NCBI GenBank assembly: GCA_964615175.1
Contig: CAZTOV010000002.1
Span: forward strand, 1-60,050
Reading direction: 5' to 3'
Origin: an uncultured Burkholderiales bacterium
GTDB taxonomy: Bacteria; Actinomycetota; Acidimicrobiia; IMCC26256; JACPCJ01
DNA: 60,050 nucleotides
The position numbers and the translations under genes were made by a program. Positions 958-13,150 of the stretch are shown here, piece by piece (position 1 is the stretch's first letter; each line of letters starts with the position of its first letter). The notes beneath the pieces are model-generated. The model searched no databases and was not told where the DNA came from. It saw only the letters and a program-made list of their open reading frames with translations.

Positions 958-1002
958 TGGCGCCCCCGGCAGGATTCGAACCTGCGGCACGCGGTTTAGG
1001 AA
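958..1002 (-). pseudogene. 3' half of the host tRNA-Arg(CCT), forming one island att junction
   Basis: Minus strand reads TTCCTAA-ACCGC-GTGCC-GCAGG-TTCGAAT-CCTGC-CGGGGGC-G-CCA: anticodon loop, T arm, acceptor strand and encoded CCA. No D arm lies upstream. Confidence 0.9.
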
Positions 1003-1110
1003 CTGAGAAAGGCGACGACGACGAACCTGCCTAGATTGAGCGTCGTCCCAGGTCAGACCCGTCTTTCGAGTGACCGCCAATGACCAGCGCCACCCCTGAG
1101 GGGCCGCCCG

Positions 1111-1129
1111 GTGGGGCACATGTGGGGCA
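1111..1129 (+). repeat. Putative integrase arm-type sites (left end)
   Basis: GTGGGGCA repeated with an 11-bp period (1111-1118, 1122-1129); TGACCAGCG at 1081 also recurs at 13060. Confidence 0.5.
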
Positions 1130-1395
1130 GCTGCTGAGTGCCGACTGCCGGCACTCAGGTCCCTCCCCATTTGCCGAGGACCTTGTGAGACACTGGCCCT
1201 GATTTACCCCGTCCCCGTGGCGGGACGCAATCGCGATGACGAAGAGGAGGTGACCTGCGATGACACCGAGATGTATATGCGTCCGGCGCGTTTAGCCGGG
1301 CGCAAAGGCGGCGACTTTGGGCCAGGCTCAGAGGCCTGACAGCGGCGCAGACGGTGGTCACAGAAACCCAACGTCTCCCAAGTCGTCCCTGAACA

Positions 1396-1698
1396 ATGGT
1401 TTGTGCCGCGTGCTCGTCCACTGAGGACGAGCGTCAGGCGCTGAGTCTTGACGTGCAATGCACGGAGAGGCTCATGCAAAAGACAATTGAAGCGCTCTAC
1501 GACTGGCTTGAGTGCCTGGACGGGATCCAGCGTTTCGCCGTATACCTCCGGTTCTGGTGTGACCTGACTGAGGCTCAAATCGGTGAATTGCTGTTCGGGG
1601 ACCTGGAGAACGTCTCACTGAGTGAGCGTCGAAGCCGTGCACACGATGTCCTCCGCGCCGCACTTCGGAAACTGCGGCGTAGGGCGGGTGTGGCGTGA
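1396..1698 (+). CDS. Small protein with a sigma-70 region 4-like helix-turn-helix (possibly a remnant)
   Basis: LDGIQRFAVYLRFWCDLTEAQIGELL...RAALRKLR resembles sigma region 4. No region 2 is present and the start is uncertain. Confidence 0.5.
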   Translation: MVCAACSSTEDERQALSLDVQCTERLMQKTIEALYDWLECLDGIQRFAVYLRFWCDLTEAQIGELLFGDLENVSLSERRSRAHDVLRAALRKLRRRAGVA

Positions 1699-2089
1699 CG
1701 GCCCGGTACGAGCAGTCCCCACGGAAGTCCTCGCGGCGATGGGTCTGGAAAGTGGCGGTGTGGATCGTTCAGGAGATTGCCAGGTTGCTGATCCGTCAAT
1801 GGTCGTAGCGTTCTGCAATGTGCGGTTGCTCCTCGTGCCCTCTGGTCATCAGCGCAAATTCAATGATTGGTGCTGAGACGGCCTCTGGTGCCCCATACCA
1901 CTGCACTCGTTGCAATGCCCCGGGGAGGGCTCGCCTGCGCCCCCGTGTTGCAGCTTCGCTGTATCTTCCAGCCGATACGCCGCGGAGGACGCTGACTGCG
2001 GAGTCGTCCGCTGCACCACTCCGGTGGCCGTCGGGTGCTTGGAGGTCCGAGTTGAACCCGCGAAGACGTCGGATTCGTCAGTCCACTAG

Positions 2090-5000
2090 ATGACTCTGTC
2101 TCCAGCTCACCGTGGGTACGTCCACCAGGACGTGGTCACGGCGTACGCGCTCGCATGCCTTCTCCTTCCAGGCTCCACTGATGATGAGGTTGTGGCCAAT
2201 CGGAAGCTGTCCGCTGACGATGTCTTCGATGATCTTGGTCTGTTCGGGAAGGCAACGCGACGCATTCAGATAAAGAGCCACGTAGGCGACCGTCGCCAGC
2301 TGTCGAGTGCTGATCTGGCCACTGACCAGATCAGCTTCCGGATCGACCGCGCGATTCGAAGCGTGGTTGGTGACGAGACGCTGGCTGATCAGTACCGGTT
2401 GGTTGTGACGTTTGATGCGCCCGACGACTCCCTACTCCCGTTTCTCACGCCCGCACCGCATCGCGACCCCTTTCTTCCGTACCTCTCCACGCTCCGATAC
2501 GAGCTTGACGTCGACGCCCTCTGGCCAGCAGACAGTGTCCCGAGCTGGCGTCAGTTGAACGCATTCGACCGACCGACGTTCGTGCGGTTTGCTGAGCGAT
2601 TTGTCGTTGAGACGGACTGCCCATCCTCCTCTGGTGATCTTGCCGCTCTGGGCAGTCTCGAGAGTGCGTTGCTTGAGCTCCTCGAGAGGAGTCTTGGCGC
2701 TGGCCACCCGCCCAATCGGGACCGCAGCCCCTTGGACGTGCTTGCCCACCTGGTCCAGTTCGCGCAAACGGCGCGGGTGCATCAGGCAAGCAGGAGGTCC
2801 GGGGAGGTGCTCATCGCGACTGGGCTTAGGGACGATTTCGGCCGCGTTGAAGAACGTTTGCCACTCGACAAAGACCGTCTTGTGGCTCGGGAGCCTGCGC
2901 TCGACGAGCTTGTCGAGGCCGTTCATGAAGGACCGCGTGTCGTGGTTAGGGGGCCACCGGGAATCGGTAAGTCCTGGATGTTGTCGCAGCTTCACGACCG
3001 TCTGGCGAAAGATGGTTGGATCGTTGCCACGCACTACTGCTTTATCGATCCGCTCGATGTGATGCGGGAGCGACGCATCGCCACGGACGTAATCTTCGGC
3101 AGCCTGATCGCCGAGCTTCTCGATGCTGACCCGTTGCTGAGGACCGATCGCGTACCGCGCTTCGCCGCTGGTCCTCGAGAACTGGAAACCATCCTCACCA
3201 ACGGCGCGGCCAACATCCCGAAGCGACGGATCGCCATAGTCGTCGACGGCCTCGACCATGCGGACCGGATCCACGCGGGTCTGCCCTCGCGCTTGGCGGG
3301 CGAAATCGCTGAAGAGCTCGCGGATCTCAACCTCCCAGACAGTGTTGTGTTGGTCGTTGGTTCACAGCCGGGGGACCATCTCGAACCCCTTCTCGCCCAA
3401 GCGCGGGCGTATGACCTCACGCGATGGGATGATCCGCACATCCAGGAGCTGGCTTTGCGAGCTGGAGTCGACGCTGCCCTCGCTGAAGCCGGACTGGACG
3501 ACGAAGCGGACGCGGTGATCGACGCGATCGTGTTGACTGCCGCAGGCAACCCTCTGTATGCGACATATCTGGCTCGAACCGCCATGCAGGTTGCCAGGGG
3601 CGACGCTGTACCGCCCGACGGCTTCGACCTCGCGGAGCACCTTCGTTCGGCGCCGCCGTTCGACGACTACTACGCATGGCTGTTGAAGAGTCTCGGGCTT
3701 GACACAGGGGTCACCTTCTTGGCCCAGCTTCTCGCGACAGTCGCGTTTCCGGTCACAACTGCCGAGATTGCTGAAATCCTCCCTGAAATGAGCCATCTCG
3801 TGCCGGAGATGCTCAGGCGACTCAGCCCAGTGCTAGCCGGGGATCCGGACCGAGGCGGAGTTCGTGCCTACCACGAGAGTTTCCAACGACACGTAGTCGC
3901 AGCCGACCCAGATCTCGATCATTCGAGGATGGTCGTTCCGGTGATCGATTGGCTTGTCGCTCGCGACTTCTTTGCCGATGAGAGAGCCTTCCGGTTTCTC
4001 TTCCCCCTCCTTCGCACGGCACAGCGCGACGAGGACCTGCTGGCGCTGATTGACGTTGATTTCGTGACGCGCGCCGCACAGCATTGTCAGCCTGGTGATG
4101 CGGTCATCGCGAACCTGAGTACGGCAGCGCAAGCAGCAGCCGGCCTTCAAGCGTGGGCTTCCCTCACCGAGCTTGTGGAACTCGCGCGTGCGGCTCAGTA
4201 CCTCTATTCGTGGCGGCTTGACGTTGACGAGTTTCTAGCCGAGAGCTTCGGGCGTGCCTACGCGGGTTTATTCGGAGCGCCCGCTCTGGCGGCACGTCTC
4301 CTCCACGACGGTCGTTGCACGTTCCGCCCGCGTCCGGGGTTGTTGCTCTGTCGACTATGCGATGACGAGGGTGTCGATGCACCGTGGGCCGAGTACAGAG
4401 CCGCGTACCACCAGCAGCGCCAGACAGACAACACCATCTACAGCGGTGACGGTGGGGCAATCACGGAGGCCAGGCTCGTGGGGACCCTTCGGATAGCCGG
4501 TCGCGACCGCTCCATCGAACTCGCGGTTCGCTGGCTTGCAAGCTCGGACGGTCCGCCGGTTCATCCGCATGAGCTTGTATGGCTCGTCGGCGACATGTAC
4601 GGCTTCGACGCCGCAACATCGGTCACCGACTCGCTGGAGCGAGGTGAGGAGCGTGCCTGGGGGCGCGTTGCAGCGGCACACTTCGCGGCCGAACTCGACA
4701 CGGCCAGTGCTCTCGCGGAAGCTGCGCTCCAGGACGGGCTCCCCCGGGAGGGCATTCCTGACTGCCTCATGCTCGGGGTTGACCCAGCGTTCGTACCGCC
4801 ATCGGGGACCGATCTCGAAAGTCTTACTCGTGAGATCTTGACCCGCGCAGTGCGACTTGAAGACAATCTGCTCACGCGATGGCTCACTGAACTCGATGTT
4901 TTAGGAGCCAAGGGCGACGAGGCAGCCCTCTTCCGGGTTGAGAACTTGATCCCCTCGGATACCTGGTATCACCGATGGCTTCGGTTCGCGGTCGCTCTGC

Positions 5001-8000
5001 GTCGCGATCTTGACGACGCCACCGTGCTTTCGGATCTCCACCGTCTCTCGGACGAGATCGAGGTGTTTCAGGGCGATCCCCGTGTCGTTGACCTGTACCC
5101 GATCCTTGGAGACATCCGAGCCTCATTCCGCCAGATGCTTGGTCGCCTGGACGACGAGGATTGGTCAACGGCGCTCGACGCTCTCGTCACGATCGGAGCA
5201 AAGACGACTACCTGGCTAGACGGTTCTCGCAACGGCCCCTTGCCGATCGATGCGCTGCTCGCACTCATCCTTGAAGCGGCTAACACCGAACCCAAGAGGA
5301 GGAAGGCGAGTCAGGTGGCAGCCCAGCTCCTCGAGGTGGGCGAGCTCGGAGGGGAGTTTTACGAGACCCACGCCGATGACCACTTCCTTTTGGCGAGGGT
5401 GCACGCTGCGGCTGGCAACCGGGAACTTGCAGAACGAGCATGGCGAACGGGCTGCCGCTACCTCTCAGGATACGGGTGGCGGAAGGACATCACCGTCTAC
5501 GAAGTGGTCGATCCGCTCAGCGCCCTCGCGGACGCGGACCCAGAACGCGTTCGCGCAGCGCTGAGAGAAGTCCAGTCGATTGTGGAGGGTGTGCTTGTTC
5601 ACACAGACGGCCGCGAGACGCGACATGCCATCCACGCGTGGATCGATCTTGCAGCTCGACGACATCCGGAAGGTGCCCTCACCCACCTCGCCAACGAAGA
5701 CATGCTCCGCGTTCCCTCGTTTGGCGATCTAGATCACGCATTCCCGATCGCACTATCAGCTCTTCACGAGGACCTGCCGGCCATCATTTCGGCCGCGGGA
5801 TGGGTCGGCGCCGGGACCGAAGTCCGACGGACCCCCCGGGCAGGTCTTGCAGGATGCGAAGTCGCCGCAACCGCAGACGCCGACACCGCCTGGTCCGCTG
5901 TGGTCGCCGCGGTTGTTGGCGACGGAACCGGGTGCCCACCCGGAGCAACAGCGGAAATCCTCGCGTCGGCCGAACGACTCGGTCGCACGGTTGGCGAACT
6001 TCCCGCCGAACCCGTGGACGATGGAGAACCTGCGAATCACCCCATCTCCCCCCTTCGTCATCAGCCGTTCTCCGACACACTCATTGGCCCCACGGTGTTC
6101 GAAATCGATCACGACGGCCTGCTGCAGATCGCAGCCGGGGTTCGGCGATGGCGCGCTCAGCCGGAACGGATCAGTGCTGACGCCGTTGTCAACGCGGTTG
6201 GCTGGCGGCTACTCGTCATGTACGACGCTGGTCGCCGCGACGAAGCAGAAGACCTCCTACGCCGCATCGCCCGCGACACGCCAACATGGCCCGCCGATGA
6301 TCTCTTGGTCGCGCTCGCCGAAGGTCTCACGCGCTTTGGGGCATCAAGCCTCGCAGCCCTGGCTGCAACGCTCGCCTACACGCGCGCCCGAGACGGGTGG
6401 CGGCGCTTTGCGGGTACGGACGGGCAAGATGTCTTTCTCAGCGGTGTGCATCTCGACGACAAGACTGCGTGGGCCACGCTTGCGGCGGAGGTGGCCGATG
6501 GCGTTGCCCGGGGCGGTGAGAACGGAATCACCGTCCACCTCATTGAGGTTCTAGCCGCCGCTGGGCGGACCGATGAGGCGTATGCTGCCTGGGCCGCGGC
6601 CCGTCGGGTGATCGAAAACCGCCTACCGGCAACAGGGCCCGCAGATTCCATTGAGGTTGTCTACGACGACACTGCCGCCGTCCCCCTCTCAGCGCTGACG
6701 GAGGCGCTTGTAGGTCGTCTCAACCACTGTCTTGTTGCGGAACGTCGCGCCGCCACGGCGGGCTTGGCCCTCCTTGCGTCGCAGGATGGGCTAGCCATCG
6801 GATCAGCGATTGAGTTTGCTGCGCACCGGGCTCCAGTGTCGGTACTGATCGCGGTACTTCAGATCGCCGACTCGTATGAGCCGGAGCCCTACGAAGGAAC
6901 GCGGCGATGTGAGGACGTGCTCCAGGAAATTGCCCGCGGTGAACTGGTCTCAGCGCGAGTGCTTGCACGGCGCCTCCTCCAACGAGCTGGCTTCTCGACC
7001 AATGTCGCTCCAGCCCTCGAAGTGCCAATCGCCCCAGCCCTCGACGATGAGCGGATCGACATGCTTCGACGCTTGATCGGGGAAGCACGCCTAAGACCAA
7101 TCGAAGCCGTATGGCCAGACTTTGGACGAGTAGCGGCCCAACAACTGGAACTCGTATGGAGCAGCGATGAGTTCCGCGACCAGATGAAGTCAGTGCTTCA
7201 GAGGCTCAAGCAGGATCGACACCGCCGCGACATCGACGCCTGGATGCCGGAGGCCGAGGCAAGGGTGCGCGTCCTGCAAACAACGGCAACTGCGGCCAGA
7301 TCGGCTCTGGCGTCAGCCGGCACCATTGATCCAAGGGTCGAGGACGAGGTTGGGCTGAGCCTGCTCGGAATGTTGGACCTGGGTGTGCGTTTCAGCCTCA
7401 GCCGAACGCTTCGACCGCAGGATTATCCGTTGCCGACCGAAACCGCGACCATGGACAGTGAAGCGGGTCTGCGAGCCGTCGACGAAGCCGGAGATTTCGA
7501 AGGTTGGATCGTGCTTGCCCATCACGAGCGTGAACTCGTCCGAGGAGACGAATACGACAAGCCCCTTGTGGCCAATCACGAGACCTGGTCCGGGCTGCAG
7601 TTCACCGAGGGCCCCTTGGACCTCAGCGGCCAACTGCCCCTCGGGATCGGAAATGCCGAACTATGGCTCAGGGTCGGTGCCACCGAAGCAGTACCTCCGG
7701 TGTTCCAAGGCCCAACCGCCGGCCTTGACGTCTGCCTGGACGCTTGGAGCACCGTCGAAGTGCTGACCCCTCATCCTGCCCTTGTCTTAGCGGCCGACCT
7801 GCGCCCGGCTCCCTTTGCAGATGGCCTGACTCTCCTCGATTCCGCCGGCAATCCGGCGGTCGTCGCGCGCCAGTGGCGACAGGAGACCCTCCGCGATGAG
7901 GAGCTGAGCGAGCAGGAGTACCGCATCGTCGGTAGAGATCTCCTTGCCCGACCAGATGTCGTGACAACACTCGCAGGCAGAGCCATTGGTGAGCCCGTAC

Positions 8001-8044
8001 ACATGACCACAACTGTTGTTCGAGACTCGCCCAGTAGTTGGTGA
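2090..8044 (+). CDS. Nuclease-STAND NTPase, AVAST/Avs-like anti-phage protein
   Basis: 1984 aa; N-terminal GYVHQD and FDD...IQIK (Cap4/Mrr-like PD-(D/E)xK pattern), Walker A GPPGIGKS, Walker B IAIVVDGLD, GNPLY motif and a long helical C-terminus. Confidence 0.8.
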   Translation: MTLSPAHRGYVHQDVVTAYALACLLLPGSTDDEVVANRKLSADDVFDDLGLFGKATRRIQIKSHVGDRRQLSSADLATDQISFRIDRAIRSVVGDETLADQYRLVVTFDAPDDSLLPFLTPAPHRDPFLPYLSTLRYELDVDALWPADSVPSWRQLNAFDRPTFVRFAERFVVETDCPSSSGDLAALGSLESALLELLERSLGAGHPPNRDRSPLDVLAHLVQFAQTARVHQASRRSGEVLIATGLRDDFGRVEERLPLDKDRLVAREPALDELVEAVHEGPRVVVRGPPGIGKSWMLSQLHDRLAKDGWIVATHYCFIDPLDVMRERRIATDVIFGSLIAELLDADPLLRTDRVPRFAAGPRELETILTNGAANIPKRRIAIVVDGLDHADRIHAGLPSRLAGEIAEELADLNLPDSVVLVVGSQPGDHLEPLLAQARAYDLTRWDDPHIQELALRAGVDAALAEAGLDDEADAVIDAIVLTAAGNPLYATYLARTAMQVARGDAVPPDGFDLAEHLRSAPPFDDYYAWLLKSLGLDTGVTFLAQLLATVAFPVTTAEIAEILPEMSHLVPEMLRRLSPVLAGDPDRGGVRAYHESFQRHVVAADPDLDHSRMVVPVIDWLVARDFFADERAFRFLFPLLRTAQRDEDLLALIDVDFVTRAAQHCQPGDAVIANLSTAAQAAAGLQAWASLTELVELARAAQYLYSWRLDVDEFLAESFGRAYAGLFGAPALAARLLHDGRCTFRPRPGLLLCRLCDDEGVDAPWAEYRAAYHQQRQTDNTIYSGDGGAITEARLVGTLRIAGRDRSIELAVRWLASSDGPPVHPHELVWLVGDMYGFDAATSVTDSLERGEERAWGRVAAAHFAAELDTASALAEAALQDGLPREGIPDCLMLGVDPAFVPPSGTDLESLTREILTRAVRLEDNLLTRWLTELDVLGAKGDEAALFRVENLIPSDTWYHRWLRFAVALRRDLDDATVLSDLHRLSDEIEVFQGDPRVVDLYPILGDIRASFRQMLGRLDDEDWSTALDALVTIGAKTTTWLDGSRNGPLPIDALLALILEAANTEPKRRKASQVAAQLLEVGELGGEFYETHADDHFLLARVHAAAGNRELAERAWRTGCRYLSGYGWRKDITVYEVVDPLSALADADPERVRAALREVQSIVEGVLVHTDGRETRHAIHAWIDLAARRHPEGALTHLANEDMLRVPSFGDLDHAFPIALSALHEDLPAIISAAGWVGAGTEVRRTPRAGLAGCEVAATADADTAWSAVVAAVVGDGTGCPPGATAEILASAERLGRTVGELPAEPVDDGEPANHPISPLRHQPFSDTLIGPTVFEIDHDGLLQIAAGVRRWRAQPERISADAVVNAVGWRLLVMYDAGRRDEAEDLLRRIARDTPTWPADDLLVALAEGLTRFGASSLAALAATLAYTRARDGWRRFAGTDGQDVFLSGVHLDDKTAWATLAAEVADGVARGGENGITVHLIEVLAAAGRTDEAYAAWAAARRVIENRLPATGPADSIEVVYDDTAAVPLSALTEALVGRLNHCLVAERRAATAGLALLASQDGLAIGSAIEFAAHRAPVSVLIAVLQIADSYEPEPYEGTRRCEDVLQEIARGELVSARVLARRLLQRAGFSTNVAPALEVPIAPALDDERIDMLRRLIGEARLRPIEAVWPDFGRVAAQQLELVWSSDEFRDQMKSVLQRLKQDRHRRDIDAWMPEAEARVRVLQTTATAARSALASAGTIDPRVEDEVGLSLLGMLDLGVRFSLSRTLRPQDYPLPTETATMDSEAGLRAVDEAGDFEGWIVLAHHERELVRGDEYDKPLVANHETWSGLQFTEGPLDLSGQLPLGIGNAELWLRVGATEAVPPVFQGPTAGLDVCLDAWSTVEVLTPHPALVLAADLRPAPFADGLTLLDSAGNPAVVARQWRQETLRDEELSEQEYRIVGRDLLARPDVVTTLAGRAIGEPVHMTTTVVRDSPSSW

Positions 8045-8324
8045 ACTCCGCTTTCGAGAATGCCAACTCGCGCGGTCAGTTCGTCTGGCGCCCGGGGCAA
8101 TGCCCGAAGGTCAATCCTGCTCCAAGCCTGGCTGGTTGACCCGTTCCCTTCTGGAGGCCGGCTCGGCGCTTCTGTGTAGATGGTCTCTCTTCCAGATGAT
8201 CTAGCGATGGGCCGCGTCTGATCGAGAAACGGCGTGCCTACATCATGTCAGCTGTCAAGGACAGAGCTGGTTCTGATCGCGCGGTCAGCCTCGCGTCCTT
8301 AGTGGATGCATCTGAACGCCGGCG

Positions 8325-10295
8325 TCATGAGAGCTCTGGATCTTGTAGTTCCAGTAGCGCTGATAGCGCTTGATGAATTTCGACGAGAGGCTTCTTCTGA
8401 TCCGCTGCCAGAATCCTCGTGCGTCGCCCCACTGTGGCGAGACGGTCAGCGACCTTGCGCTTCGAAGGAGGATCGACGCCGCGCTCATCGCACCAGGCAG
8501 CCAGTGCTACGGCACGACCCGGTGTTGTCAGGCTTCCTGCTTCGATCTGGACCTCAGTCCCATGAGATCGGCGCAGCTCCTCGTTCACCGCGTCAAGGAA
8601 GGCTTCCTCTGTCACTAGGTCCTCCGGCGTATATCTGTCGGGCAACCGTAAGATTTCCCTGTCTTCAACGCCGGCTCCCCGCAGCTTCGCCGCATGTGCT
8701 CGTCCACTCTTGTCTCCGTCAAGGAGATACGCCACGCGTGGCGCTTCGAGAGACAGAGCGGCCGCCTTCTCAGGCTCCACCTCCGCAAGGCCCGGCGCGA
8801 TCTGAAAGTGCAGGTGGTCGGCATCCAAGGCCTGTCTGAAAAGCGTGGGGAGCAGAATGAAATCTGCAGCGCCCTCGGTGATCACAGCTCGGCGAGTCGG
8901 GACTAGTGCTAGAACACTTGCGCCCATGGCCAGCATCAGGGGCGAGAATCCGGCCCCTTCTGTCCAGAAGGAATTGCTGACTTCGCTCTGGCCTATGTCT
9001 TCACCGTTGTCATCCAGCACCGGTCGTACAACGCGAACGCCGCGACCCAAATCCTGAGGAAGGCAACCTGCAGAGTGGGTCGTGTAGATGATCTGTGCCG
9101 CGGTCTTCTGTTCGGTGAACACGCGAACCAAATCCGCCTGGGCATCGTAATGGAGGTGATTCTCGGCCTCATCGATGAGGAGCACAGGCGGATTTTCAAA
9201 CGCATGAAGGAATGTGTACGCGTACATGGCCACGAATGTCCGTAGCCCATCCGACCGTTCAGCCAGGGGGGTGAAAACGCCTCCAGGAGCCGATACCTGC
9301 ACGCGCACGGCCGCTTCATCGATCTGCAATTCCGGCGTTACATCGGACTGACGCCACGCAGACCCGAACCGTTCGCGAAGTCGGCGATTCGCGCGATCTT
9401 GAATCGTGTACCGGTCTTCATGTCGGCCGGTCGCCATGGCCTGGCGAAGCTGGGCCTCGTCGACCTCGGCCAGTGCTAAGAGATTTCCGAGCGCCGCCGG
9501 CGGGTTGGCAAGCTGCTGTTCGCCGTATTCACTCGCGAGCTGGCGATCTTCGTCTTCAAACTTCAGAAGCGGTGGACACCGGGCTGAAAGGTACTCCAGC
9601 AGATCGGCTTGGGGGTGTCTTGCCCGCTCATGCTCAAGCAATGACCCTATGCACTCGATCAAGCCCGCAAGCCAGCGGTCCGCCACCTTTGACTCAGCGT
9701 GCTCCGAAAGCTTCTCAGCGGTTGAACGCGCGGTGTCGAGCGCTCCCAACACTTCGTTGTCAAGGGTTTCGTCTTCTGTATCGAGGTCAATCAGTAAGCC
9801 GTCCAGCTGCTGCGTCAACGGAGTATGTTCATCTGCCTCCTCGGCATCTTCGTCCTGAGGCGCAGCGAGTTCATCAGGCGGGGCAGATGGCGGCCTCGAT
9901 TCCATCATGCTGCTCAACTTCTGGCGTACCTCAACCCGGGGCCGTCTATCGCGGCGATAAGGGTCCGACAAGACATCGTTGACTTGTCCATCGGGACGCT
10001 TGTGGCGCACTAAGAAGCGCGGAGTCCCGATGCCGCCTAGCTGGTCGGCGTACGTACGCTCCTCTTCATTGAGGGCGTAGGTGAGTTCCACCACTCGGTG
10101 ATCGGCGGGTGGATGTGTTCCGCGAGTGATGTCCGAGCCGAATGCCTCGGTGTGTTCGAGGGAGACGAGCGCGTCAAGTAGAGAACTCTTCCCCGCTTCG
10201 TTGGGGCCGACGATTGCGACGACAGGCTCATCAAGATCGACTGTCACATTGTGGAATCGCCGAAAGCCTCGGAGTCGAGCCTTGATTAGATCCAT
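8325..10295 (-). CDS. OLD-family ATP-dependent nuclease (ABC ATPase + TOPRIM)
   Basis: Likely start MDLIKARLRGFRRF at 10295; Walker A GPNEAGKS, signature RSDGLR, Walker B LLIDEAENHLH, IYTTHS; TOPRIM motifs ITEGAAD and LLDGD. Confidence 0.85.
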   Translation of the reverse strand: MDLIKARLRGFRRFHNVTVDLDEPVVAIVGPNEAGKSSLLDALVSLEHTEAFGSDITRGTHPPADHRVVELTYALNEEERTYADQLGGIGTPRFLVRHKRPDGQVNDVLSDPYRRDRRPRVEVRQKLSSMMESRPPSAPPDELAAPQDEDAEEADEHTPLTQQLDGLLIDLDTEDETLDNEVLGALDTARSTAEKLSEHAESKVADRWLAGLIECIGSLLEHERARHPQADLLEYLSARCPPLLKFEDEDRQLASEYGEQQLANPPAALGNLLALAEVDEAQLRQAMATGRHEDRYTIQDRANRRLRERFGSAWRQSDVTPELQIDEAAVRVQVSAPGGVFTPLAERSDGLRTFVAMYAYTFLHAFENPPVLLIDEAENHLHYDAQADLVRVFTEQKTAAQIIYTTHSAGCLPQDLGRGVRVVRPVLDDNGEDIGQSEVSNSFWTEGAGFSPLMLAMGASVLALVPTRRAVITEGAADFILLPTLFRQALDADHLHFQIAPGLAEVEPEKAAALSLEAPRVAYLLDGDKSGRAHAAKLRGAGVEDREILRLPDRYTPEDLVTEEAFLDAVNEELRRSHGTEVQIEAGSLTTPGRAVALAAWCDERGVDPPSKRKVADRLATVGRRTRILAADQKKPLVEIHQALSALLELQDPELS

Positions 10296-10453
10296 CCAAG
10301 CACCGTAGCTACAGCACCAGCGGGAACGCTGGGAAGGCACGCACGACCTGGTCAACGAAAGCTTGCCCAGGAGAAGCTTGATGAACGATGGCCTGTGGGA
10401 CTTGTGCCCTTCCGTCTAAGACGATTCTGCGAAGCATGTGTGGGTGCATTGCG

Positions 10454-10918
10454 CTAGTCGGCGCGGATGGGAATGACGCACAGGAGGTGATTTGCCTCGC
10501 CCTGGATGGCATCCACCACCGCACCCAGCTCCCTGTTGAGACGCAACATGCCTACATTCCTGCGGTGGACAATGGAGTCCACTGCACGTGCGCCAGCGGC
10601 CTGTGCTTCAGCGACCACAGCTTCCTTGAGCTGACGCCCGTAGCCCTGACGCTGGGTTCCGACGGCGACCGCGATGACATCGACCCGACAGACCACCCAG
10701 TCCTGCGTCAATTCGGTGATGCGCCAGGCAGCGACACCGCGCAGAGCTGCGTGATTATCGAAGAGGCCGAGCGCCGAAATTCGACCGGCTGCAATCTGGT
10801 CGCTCAGATGATCGCGGACCGTCTCTTGGATGACCTCCGTCCAAGGTTCCCCCAGGCGGGCGCATGTGAATTGTTCAAGGGGCAGCTGGTCGTCGACGGT
10901 CAGCGGCCGTAGCAGCAC
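10454..10918 (-). CDS. GNAT acetyltransferase, probable toxin
   Basis: 154 aa; acetyl-CoA motif AV...QRQGYGRQL; N-terminal EQFTC recalls the F-x-C of AtaT/TacT-type toxins; starts 7 bp after the Panacea gene. Confidence 0.75.
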   Translation of the reverse strand: MLLRPLTVDDQLPLEQFTCARLGEPWTEVIQETVRDHLSDQIAAGRISALGLFDNHAALRGVAAWRITELTQDWVVCRVDVIAVAVGTQRQGYGRQLKEAVVAEAQAAGARAVDSIVHRRNVGMLRLNRELGAVVDAIQGEANHLLCVIPIRAD

Positions 10919-10925
10919 GTGGGCC

Positions 10926-11471
10926 CTATGCGTGTTCTCTCAGAACCCGGAGCGTTGCCTCGCGTAGATCGTCGTTGATCGCTGGTCCATCGAATCCGTA
11001 GATATCGCGCCGCTCGCGCAGCCGACGGACCTCGGCGTGGTGTGATTCAAAGTCGTCGTCTGATCGGAACCAAGCGGCGAGGCGGTCATGAGTGATTTCG
11101 GGATTTGCGACGGTGAAGCTGTGATCGGCCTCGGTCACCTCACGCCAAGGGTCTTCTAGGTGCGTCATTCTCTTCAATGTCGATCCGGAGTGGTGACCGT
11201 ACCGATCAACGACATAGTTGATGACCGCGAGCTGCTCATCCCCAAGGTTCTGCGTAGCTGGACGGGGACGGTCTCGCTTCTCGTCATGCCACAGGTCTGC
11301 CACGACCGGGCCTTGGTCCCAAGCTTCGATTGGTTCTTCGAATATGGGCTTGCCGAGCCACGTCACGTGCCAGCCCTGGCAGTAGTAGGCGAGTTTGTGG
11401 ATCTTCATGTCGCCAGCGTCAGGAAGGCGGCGCCGCAGTTCTTGAACTACGTCGTGAGCAGAGAGCATCAC
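10926..11471 (-). CDS. Panacea domain (DUF4065/SocA-like) antitoxin
   Basis: KIHKLAYYCQGWH, IFEEPIEAWDQGPVV and LKRMTHLEDPW motifs; GGAGG RBS and a TAATGT -10 (11495-11500) upstream. Confidence 0.9.
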   Translation of the reverse strand: MMLSAHDVVQELRRRLPDAGDMKIHKLAYYCQGWHVTWLGKPIFEEPIEAWDQGPVVADLWHDEKRDRPRPATQNLGDEQLAVINYVVDRYGHHSGSTLKRMTHLEDPWREVTEADHSFTVANPEITHDRLAAWFRSDDDFESHHAEVRRLRERRDIYGFDGPAINDDLREATLRVLREHA

Positions 11472-11614
11472 CTAGCACCTCCTCGTCGGTATCGACATTA
11501 ACGATTGGGTAAGACACTCAAGGCGATGCCCTGACTGCCTTCCCGCCCACCCTCGGCTCCTCGAGCAGTTGATCTGTCTAGCCACAGCATCGAGCCGAGA
11601 GGCGCTGACATGTG

Positions 11615-11687
11615 TGCCCCAGGCAGGATTCGAACCTGCGACCTACCGCTTAGGAGGCGGTTGCTCTCTCCCCTGAGCTACTGGGGC
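11615..11687 (-). tRNA. Complete island-encoded tRNA-Arg(CCT)
   Basis: GCCCCAG TA GCTC AGGGGAGA GAGC A ACCGC CTCCTAA GCGGT AGGTC GCAGG TTCGAAT CCTGC CTGGGGC A folds as a full cloverleaf (73 nt, CCA not encoded); TACGCT -10 at 11698-11703. Confidence 0.95.
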
Positions 11688-11855
11688 GGGACGGCCCAGC
11701 GTACGCCTCATCTTCCGGTCTCTCCGGTGTCCGAGGCGCCTGGTATATGTCGTGGATGCCTCGTCGAGGTTCATCCGAGGAGGGGTTGGGTCACAGCGCG
11801 GCCTCGATCGCCGCCAGGAACGCATGCGGTCTTGTGAGTTCTGGGGGCATCTGCG

Positions 11856-12965
11856 ATGGGTCGGAGACGCCACTTCGGTTCGATCCGGCGACTGCCGAGT
11901 GGTCGCTGGCAGGCGAGGTATCAGGGTCCGGACGGACGCCGAAGGTCCGCGCCGCGGACGTTTACGTCACATCGAGACGCGGCGCGGTGGCTCAGTGTCA
12001 CCGAGCACCGAATCCTTACCGGCGAGTGGGGTGATCCCGCGGCCGGCAATGTGAAGGTCAGCGAGTGGGCGGTGCGGTGGCTCGACGGCCGCATCGACCT
12101 GAAGCCCACGACCTACCGCACCTATCAGATGATCTTGCGGAGTCGGATCGTCCCGACGTTCGGTGAGATGCCGTTGCGCTCGCTCACTCCGATGGGCGTC
12201 CAGGAGTGGGCAGCGTCTATGCAGGAGCGAGGTCTTTCGGCGTCATCGATCCGCCAGTCGGTGCACCTGTTGGGAGCGATCATGAAGGGAGCGGTCCGCG
12301 AGGGAATGATCCGATCGAATCCATGTGAGGTGGTCAGACTCCCACCCCTTCCCCGAACTGAGATCGAGGTTCTCGACGCGGGGGAGGTCGAAGCGCTGGC
12401 GAACGCGATCCAGAAGCCCTTCGACCTGCTTGTCCACATCGGTGCGTATGGCGGGCTTCGTTTCGGTGAGCTTGGCGCGCTACGGCGACGCTCATGCGAT
12501 CTCGAGCGCCGGCGTCTCCACGTGACCGAGGCCGTGGTCGAAGTGGACGGTCGTCTGATCGTCGGGACGCCGAAGACTCATCAGTGGCGAAGCGTCGTCT
12601 TGCCCACCTTCGTCGTCAGTCGCCTTGCATCGCACTTCGAATCCATGGCGCCGGACGATGGAGAGTTCCTCTTCGGTGAGGCGATGGACAGGCCGCTTCG
12701 CTACAGCGCGTTCAGACGCCACGTCTGGAAGCCGGCCCTGGTGGCGGCAGGGCTCCACTCGACGTTGGGGGTCCATGTTCTCCGCCACACGTGCGCGTCC
12801 CTCCTCATCGCCAACGGCGCGTCGATCAAGCTCGTCCAACGCCAACTTGGCCACGCCAGCGCGGAGCTGACCCTCGACCGGTACGGGCACCTCTATCCCA
12901 GCGAGCTCGACGAACTCGTCGAGGCCTTCGACCGCATCCACACCCGTTCCCGCCGAGACGAGTGA
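11856..12965 (+). CDS. Tyrosine recombinase / phage-type integrase
   Basis: 369 aa; N-terminal GSIRRLPSGRWQARY arm-binding region; catalytic GLRFGE, TPKT, HVLRH, LGH and DRYGH motifs. Confidence 0.95.
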   Translation: MGRRRHFGSIRRLPSGRWQARYQGPDGRRRSAPRTFTSHRDAARWLSVTEHRILTGEWGDPAAGNVKVSEWAVRWLDGRIDLKPTTYRTYQMILRSRIVPTFGEMPLRSLTPMGVQEWAASMQERGLSASSIRQSVHLLGAIMKGAVREGMIRSNPCEVVRLPPLPRTEIEVLDAGEVEALANAIQKPFDLLVHIGAYGGLRFGELGALRRRSCDLERRRLHVTEAVVEVDGRLIVGTPKTHQWRSVVLPTFVVSRLASHFESMAPDDGEFLFGEAMDRPLRYSAFRRHVWKPALVAAGLHSTLGVHVLRHTCASLLIANGASIKLVQRQLGHASAELTLDRYGHLYPSELDELVEAFDRIHTRSRRDE

Positions 12966-12998
12966 GCCCGCCGTGAGCGGCTCATTTGGATTTCGCCT

Positions 12999-13017
12999 CG
13001 GGCACGCAGCGGGCACG
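12999..13017 (+). repeat. Putative integrase arm-type sites (right end)
   Basis: CGGGCACG repeated with an 11-bp period (12999-13006, 13010-13017), sharing the GGGCA core of the left-end pair. Confidence 0.5.
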
Positions 13018-13112
13018 AGCGATGGTGCAAAAAACCGCGTGTCGCCTCTCGCAACGCTCTGACCAGCGGAAACGGCCGACACCAGCGGCCATTCACGGCT
13101 ACCCGCGGGGAC

Positions 13113-13150
13113 TTAGGAAACCACTGCTCTATCCCCTGAGCTACGGGGGC
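13113..13150 (-). pseudogene. 5' half of the host tRNA-Arg(CCT), forming the other island att junction
   Basis: Minus strand GCCCCCG TA GCTC AGGGGATA GAGC A GTGGT TTCCTAA, followed by non-tRNA sequence; GCCCCCG pairs with CGGGGGC of the 3' half at 962-968. Confidence 0.9.

Follow-up and report, generated by a model that had tools for sequence, protein, structure and literature searches.

We investigated a 12.1-kb island at positions 1003-13112 of a 60,050-nucleotide stretch of DNA (hereafter the window), which is the first 60 kb of contig C2 (CAZTOV010000002.1) in the genome of an uncultured actinobacterium, a soil bacterium (3.23 Mb, 69% GC, 461 contigs, 77% complete). On either side of the island lies one half of a host tRNA-Arg(CCT) gene, both on the minus strand, and the island itself carries a complete tRNA-Arg(CCT) gene (Table 1). 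The GC content is 62% in the island and 70% beyond position 13150. From the attL end, the gene order is integrase, tRNA, Panacea antitoxin, GNAT acetyltransferase, ATPase, STAND NTPase and a small open reading frame (ORF) resembling a helix-turn-helix (HTH) protein.

Table 1. Positions of the split tRNA-Arg(CCT) gene and of the island features in the window.
Feature	Position	Strand	Basis or remark
5' half of the split tRNA-Arg(CCT), ending at the anticodon loop, attL side	13113..13150 (13150-13113)	-	sequence
3' half of the split tRNA-Arg(CCT), anticodon loop to encoded CCA, attR side	958..1002 (1002-958)	-	sequence
7-bp core TTCCTAA (anticodon loop), left copy	996..1002	-	TTAGGAA on +
7-bp core TTCCTAA (anticodon loop), right copy	13113..13119	-	TTAGGAA on +
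Complete island tRNA-Arg(CCT)	11614..11687	-	ARAGORN; anticodon stem ACCGC/GCGGT, loop CTCCTAA, without encoded CCA
Candidate -10 element TACGCT of the island tRNA	11698..11703	-	ends 10 nt before the tRNA
Tyrosine integrase, 369 aa	11856..12965	+	Pfam and residue conservation
SocA-like/Panacea-domain antitoxin	10926..11471	-	domain match
GNAT acetyltransferase, predicted to be the toxin paired with the upstream antitoxin	10454..10918	-	21.5 bits, cut-off 20.7
ABC-type ATPase related to OLD/GajA/AriA/PtuA defence ATPases	8325..10355	-	domain match
1984-aa STAND/NACHT-type NTPase, predicted Avs-like defence protein	2090..8044	+	AAA_16 and NPHP3_N above cut-off
Small ORF with similarity to sigma-70 region 4 (HTH)	1396..1698	+	weak, below Pfam cut-off
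Paired TGCCC[C/G] direct repeat, candidate integrase arm-type site	1113..1129	-	left end
Paired TGCCC[C/G] direct repeat, candidate arm-type site	12999..13015	-	same orientation as the left pair

The identity between the two host halves is restricted to the 7-bp anticodon loop and breaks off on both sides; one further 7-mer is common to the two 100-bp junction regions and lies off the junctions. A scripted join of positions 1-1002 to 13120 onward gave a normal 76-nt tRNA-Arg(CCT) with CCA, called by ARAGORN, in which the acceptor pairs are 7/7 and the anticodon-stem pairs 5/5, one of them being G.U. The scripted circle junction gave no tRNA call, and the 76 nt at each real junction folded no better than shuffled sequences (z of 0.73 and 0.17). 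A preliminary description of this DNA had stated that the halves share the loop alone, that their acceptor strands pair and that neither junction rebuilds a tRNA, and the coordinates, the ARAGORN calls and the folding scores agree with it.

The only tRNA that ARAGORN calls in the window is the island copy (11687-11614), which folds as a cloverleaf (z -2.96) and scores 72.7 bits against the Rfam tRNA model. As first described, it has the same anticodon as the split gene and its own candidate -10 element, and is read divergently from the integrase gene, whose start at 11856 is 168 bp away. A TANNNT motif ending 4-25 nt upstream is present in 25 of 45 scored regions (44 tRNA genes of the genome, including the island tRNA, and the split 5' half) and at about 1% of random sites; a scan with the sigma-70 consensus itself found no promoter.

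A comparison of the island tRNA with the rebuilt host gene shows 15 differences in the first 73 positions; seven of them fall in the anticodon stem, and the first base of the loop and an acceptor pair, the latter with compensation, are also changed. A C at the first loop position (C32) occurs in 16 of the 264 genomes of the order (one of them, G128, unpublished), and 12 of these, including the present one, have the ACCGC/GCGGT stem. The 15 other C32-allele genes, five of which lie at contig ends, showed neither an integrase match nor a tRNA half in the fetched DNA, and the 28 class-level loci most similar to the island tRNA showed no integrase or half within 1.5 kb. The possibility that the anticodon stem was recoded inside the island, as an adaptation, was rejected, since 11 other genomes of the order have the same stem with no integrase or half in the fetched DNA. 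Because this stem is natural in such relatives, the island tRNA looks like a chromosomal allele captured from another Acidimicrobiia-type host.

A genome-wide scan for other Arg(CCT) genes returned no second one: among 45 ARAGORN calls in the 77%-complete genome, the island copy is the sole intact Arg(CCT). AGG accounts for 7.4% of the Arg codons and AGA for 1.9% (3505 vs 877 codons in 1498 long ORFs), and AGG is present in 924 of these ORFs.

The integrase has intact catalytic residues, with R202, K240, H307, R310, H333 and Y343 invariant among 20 close homologues. The named close homologues come from Acidimicrobiales and Acidimicrobiia assemblies, so that the host likely belongs to that group. 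The integrase gene's 3' end faces the attL core. A tree of 37 integrases was built, with two short rows left out, 3' labels taken from geometry and three rows from the unpublished genomes G056, G067 and G068. The sister of the island integrase in it is the G012 integrase (99/98), and that of G155 branches next (90/85). Both of these relatives are 5'-restoring at Arg(CCT), as is G415, whose integrase is outside the tree and 50% identical to that of the island. In G012, G155 and G415 the core has the same direction as the integrase gene, whereas in this island it is reversed relative to it. The loop and its reverse complement agree in the outer two bases on each side, a near-symmetry which makes it plausible that the core has flipped. 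An HTH_17 excisionase-like gene lies directly upstream of the integrase gene in G012 and G415, and such a match was also obtained in 11 of 23 other integrase loci. The island tRNA occupies the slot of this excisionase gene; the element therefore likely excises rarely or only with help in trans. Two weak excisionase homologues are present elsewhere in the genome, and an excisionase remnant between the tRNA and the integrase gene was not significant (31% and 43% of shuffles).

We found orphan Arg(CCT) 5' halves ending at the loop in 24 of the 264 genomes of the order, including this one, and none in the controls; by its design the search pattern overlooks about one case in four, and G067 and G068 are unpublished. 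In the other 23 genomes, a full gene with a matching 5' half lies further along the same contig in 12 and on another contig in G155, and was not resolvable in the fetched DNA in 10. Those with such a match are 5'-restoring islands, and all resolvable cases in the order retain a full Arg(CCT) gene after integration. Displaced and restored 5' halves differ at 0-2 of 38 nt in 11 pairs (8 from the order and 3 from the class), compared with 7 of 38 in this island. Orphan 3' halves are present in 13 of the 264 genomes; of the 12 other genomes, 11 were fetched, and the majority are consistent with 3'-restoring islands. In G214 and G216, one tRNA has both restoring kinds around it. In G062 (L249:246-373, C572), a full ACCGC-type tRNA-Arg(CCT) with the same TACGCT spacing and an atypical T-loop is followed after 9 nt by an orphan 3' half of the host type; a search of this 77%-complete genome gave no orphan 5' half. 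An adjoining ORF is, as we presume from its motifs, TnpB-like. G062 may be a relic of the same replacement-island design.

Several further observations were made on these relatives. Islands of the 5'-restoring kind are common at Arg(CCT) in the order and often stacked, with up to three orphan 5' halves before one full gene (G012:C4, G214:C20, G131:C5, G133:C5, G135:C1, G216:C2 and others). Orphan 5' halves occur in more genomes than orphan 3' halves; in the Islander collection, according to the accessible text of PMC4383910, 5' fragments account for about 4% of islands (159 of 3919, the 3' fragment being found in 3760). The first loop base is T in every one of the 31 orphan 5' halves from the order, and the orphan matches include none of the 15 other C-type-allele genomes. 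In G300:C35 (L324:19266-19639), the 5' part of tRNA-Arg(CCT) is present as a truncated copy, 260 bp upstream of a full gene that is read divergently, and no orphan 3' half was found there. G219:C126 (L060:2605-3703) has a 1-kb duplication-like structure, in which a degraded 5' copy of tRNA-Arg(TCT) and its upstream sequence precede a full gene that adjoins an integrase. Among viral contigs, a single query found no integrase relative, and 12 pattern matches yielded 9 orphan 5' halves; in these 9 records, which may be fragments, the pattern found no 3' half or full gene. No split-plus-tRNA layout was present in the 17 of 80 further loci that were scanned, and no split layout in 14 GTDB and 31 metagenome integrase loci.

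The assembly of the locus was compared with contigs of three public runs, which belong to one study and two of which may be the source of this DNA; runs X4-X9, with small shares, were left out, and no RNA run was listed as containing this DNA. The left junction is crossed exactly in 3/3 runs. The right junction is crossed in one run (X2) by a 31-letter rule and by 30 letters in a second, the third having no coverage. The depth of the island contig (12.5-15) is close to that of the flanks (13.5-15) in X1 and X2. These results speak against the misassembly that the preliminary description had considered. The public-run contigs break within the tRNA repeats and none covers the whole locus. A joint corresponding to an empty site (995 to 13113, depth 6-10) appeared at 90% likeness, disappeared at 99% and was attributed to tRNAs of other organisms.

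The remaining genes agree with the earlier proposal of a non-phage island with defence-like cargo. No virion or repressor family was found in the six island proteins (Pfam, PHROGs), and a Pfam scan of the island proteins found no replication or relaxase domain. From domain resemblance, the cargo is predicted to consist of anti-phage defence genes. PADLOC matches in the island cover ATPase motifs only and no named system is complete. The toxin role of the acetyltransferase is predicted from its position. The N-terminus of the STAND NTPase gave a lead to a Cap4-like nuclease (score 0.90; cluster 46% Cap4; 139 shared features), which it possibly is. This NTPase belongs to a family of about 2000-aa proteins with 110 homologues, and it has no PADLOC match at E<=0.001 and no NCBIfam match; the family is a possible undescribed Avs-like system.

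The TGCCC[C/G] pairs lie about 100-130 bp inside the island ends and are two of 6 such pairs in the 3.23 Mb; since the motif was defined after inspecting the ends, they are supporting evidence and not a clean test. Relatives carry their own repeat pairs at both island ends. Apart from the short repeat pairs, the two island ends did not resemble each other in an overall alignment (p about 0.5). At 1020-1031, some 20 nt into the island from its left end, 9 nt match the start of the T-arm in tRNA orientation, probably by chance. Immediately outside the left junction (351-907), a VapB-like antitoxin and a PemK/MazF-like toxin form a pair, possibly older accessory DNA downstream of the tRNA. Flank synteny with relatives was not found, the tblastx matches being far from the tRNA in the window, and for amidase, UPF0182, PemK and VapB no orthologue was found next to the Arg(CCT) gene of a relative. 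Elsewhere in the genome are five further orphan tRNA 3' halves (C1:7318, C51:11349, C61:1231, C95:4473 and C255:3057), likely the ends of ordinary 3'-restoring islands; a pattern search found no orphan 5' half besides that of the split Arg(CCT).

The layout resembles tRNA-dependent lysogeny in actinobacteriophages (Fionnbharth/K4, cluster L, Cain, BrutonGaster, OneUp, Mollymur and Gaia), for which the accessible text of PMC10865867 reports that the need for the phage tRNA was shown by plasmid and deletion tests. Both have a tyrosine integrase, an attB in the anticodon region, a short core, no rebuilt tRNA, and a divergent element-borne tRNA with the same anticodon and its own promoter (a candidate -10 in the island). 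The phage cores are 8-17 bp (PMC10865867, Table 2), whereas that of the island is 7 bp, and the phage targets are Lys(TTT), Ile2(CAT) and Leu(CAA) instead of Arg(CCT). The listed annotated phage integrases are 31-33% identical to that of the island, which, unlike the phages, has no phage genes, no lysogeny, a wobble-capable TCT tRNA in its host and no excisionase found. By analogy, the island would work like tRNA-dependent lysogeny without being a member, as it is not a phage and its dependence on the tRNA is presumed. Sinorhizobium meliloti prophages like vB_MloP_Lo5R7ANS disrupt the host tRNA-Leu(UAG) centrally and replace it with a tRNA about 80% identical to that of the host and closer to genes of other species (accessible text of PMC11476347); two Sinorhizobium prophages with this replacement have been described (PMC11476347; PMC12429752). 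Those elements are intact prophages in Alphaproteobacteria, whereas the present one is a phage-less island. Islander islands share the integrase family, the anticodon sub-site A, the size range (2-200 kb) and the integrase gene inside, and the nearest relatives of the island integrase correspond to their 5'-fragment class; they regenerate a tRNA at one junction, whereas this island does so at none and leaves two displaced halves around a third gene that differs from them (PMC4383910, accessible text). No published non-phage case was found in the literature searched, which lacks most subscription papers and supplements.

Taken together, these data make it probable that one 12.1-kb element split the host Arg(CCT) gene at its 7-bp loop and that its own tRNA supplies the lost reading of AGG. 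A circular element would have recombined with the anticodon loop by means of its tyrosine integrase, and, with neither tRNA half carried at the ends of the element, the host gene would stay split. The island tRNA, presumably expressed, would cover AGG decoding and offset a fitness cost, a more likely consequence of losing the host gene than lethality. The changed loop base and anticodon stem may keep the island tRNA from being a target of its own integrase.

A number of observations weigh against this reading. No calls were obtained for Ile(GAT), Trp and other expected tRNAs in the 77%-complete genome, so a second Arg(CCT) gene may be missing too; G061 and G214 each carry two. The genome also has a tRNA-Arg(TCT), on contig C51. 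ARAGORN still calls a tRNA in the host-5'/island-3' chimera, whose stem has one Watson-Crick pair and three G.U pairs. A second complete case was not found among the 264 genomes of the order or the new class-level hits followed up, so the layout is not shown here to be heritable as a family. The claim that precise excision restores the host gene agrees with the in silico join and is otherwise weakened: an excisionase was not detected in the island (best match E 0.05, on the opposite strand), neither a circle nor an empty site survived the 99% likeness filter in the public-run contigs, and no relative with an empty site and matching flanks was found. As contigs drop rare variants, the lack of a joint is no proof that excision never occurs. 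The preliminary description had also proposed that the tRNA penalises partial deletion of the island, which is not supported: the tRNA sits 1.4 kb from one end of the island and the whole cargo (11613-1003) follows its 3' end, so the cargo could be lost with the tRNA kept and is not guarded by it. In G062, such a tRNA is seen at a distance of 9 nt from a 3' half of the host type. Once excision is lost, the island tRNA would favour retaining only the 1.5-kb end with the integrase gene and the tRNA.

The split and the island tRNA could both be real while compensation hardly matters, AGG being read by the TCT tRNA or by a missed CCT gene and the island tRNA being a passenger. The tRNA-Arg(TCT) on C51 is consistent with this, as are the single complete case, the incomplete genome and the E. 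coli CCU tRNA (argW), which the accessible text of PMC4652775 states to be dispensable because a TCT-type tRNA is present. The compensation proposed at the outset is therefore upheld as regards the anticodon and weakened as regards dependence. We nevertheless consider a passenger unlikely: the anticodon is exactly the one destroyed, the tRNA forms a perfect cloverleaf and has a -10, AGG codons outnumber AGA codons four to one, and a full Arg(CCT) gene is retained in all resolvable cases of the order. That the tRNA repeats were joined artificially in this metagenome-assembled genome is hardly credible. The public-run contigs break in those repeats, none spans the locus and the runs are from one study, but the left junction is crossed exactly in all three and the right one in X2, the depth is even and the halves are complementary.

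Two ordinary elements, one 5'-restoring (13112-11650) and one 3'-restoring (11649-1003), might instead flank one chimeric tRNA. Such a layout exists in the order (G214, G216), the nearest integrases are 5'-restoring, and the called host-5'/island-3' chimera forms 4/5 stem pairs. Of these pairs just one is Watson-Crick, however, and there is an acceptor mismatch; the reciprocal island-5'/host-3' chimera forms 2/5 stem pairs and is not called. Moreover, the two halves of the island tRNA match a natural allele as a unit and the first base of the internal loop differs from the core. The single integrase is directed away from the tRNA, in contrast to 5'-restoring integrases, which are directed towards it, and the repeat pairs match between the outer ends with none beside the internal tRNA. 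We regard this arrangement as very unlikely. Still less probable is that the island is of the ordinary 3'-restoring kind and lost its duplicated 3' half at attL to decay once it had gained a spare tRNA. The integrase does face attL at a distance typical of 3'-restoring relatives, and on a profile of 3' halves the 34 nt that follow the core come 3rd among 36 orphan sites, but 18% of 20,000 shuffles score as high, on which ground a decayed half was rejected. Furthermore, the GGTCAG seen here at +49 recurs, at +47 to +53, in ends of the 5' type, where a 3' half was never present, and the integrase groups with 5'-restoring ones.

Probable replacement of the host tRNA by a single element would extend to a phage-less island in an uncultured actinobacterium a strategy that has been shown experimentally only in phages. 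It would add a new target tRNA, with a core shorter than any listed in the accessible part of PMC10865867, and would place the design within a group of integrases that otherwise restore this tRNA, from either its 5' or its 3' side. It also bears on the question left open in that work, whether non-restoring integration preceded the restoring kind or followed it. Programs that detect islands by one regenerated tRNA and one fragment would likely mis-map such elements, and tRNA annotation would mistake the island copy for the host gene. As a more speculative and rather doubtful extension, a captured tRNA may have freed attP from tRNA halves, and a 5'-restoring lineage may have flipped its core and lost its excisionase, giving a locked-in island that swaps the host allele permanently. 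If this were true, the island would link the 5'-restoring with the 3'-restoring kind, and such swaps would help to explain why the ACCGC/GCGGT allele is patchily distributed, G062 representing the final state.

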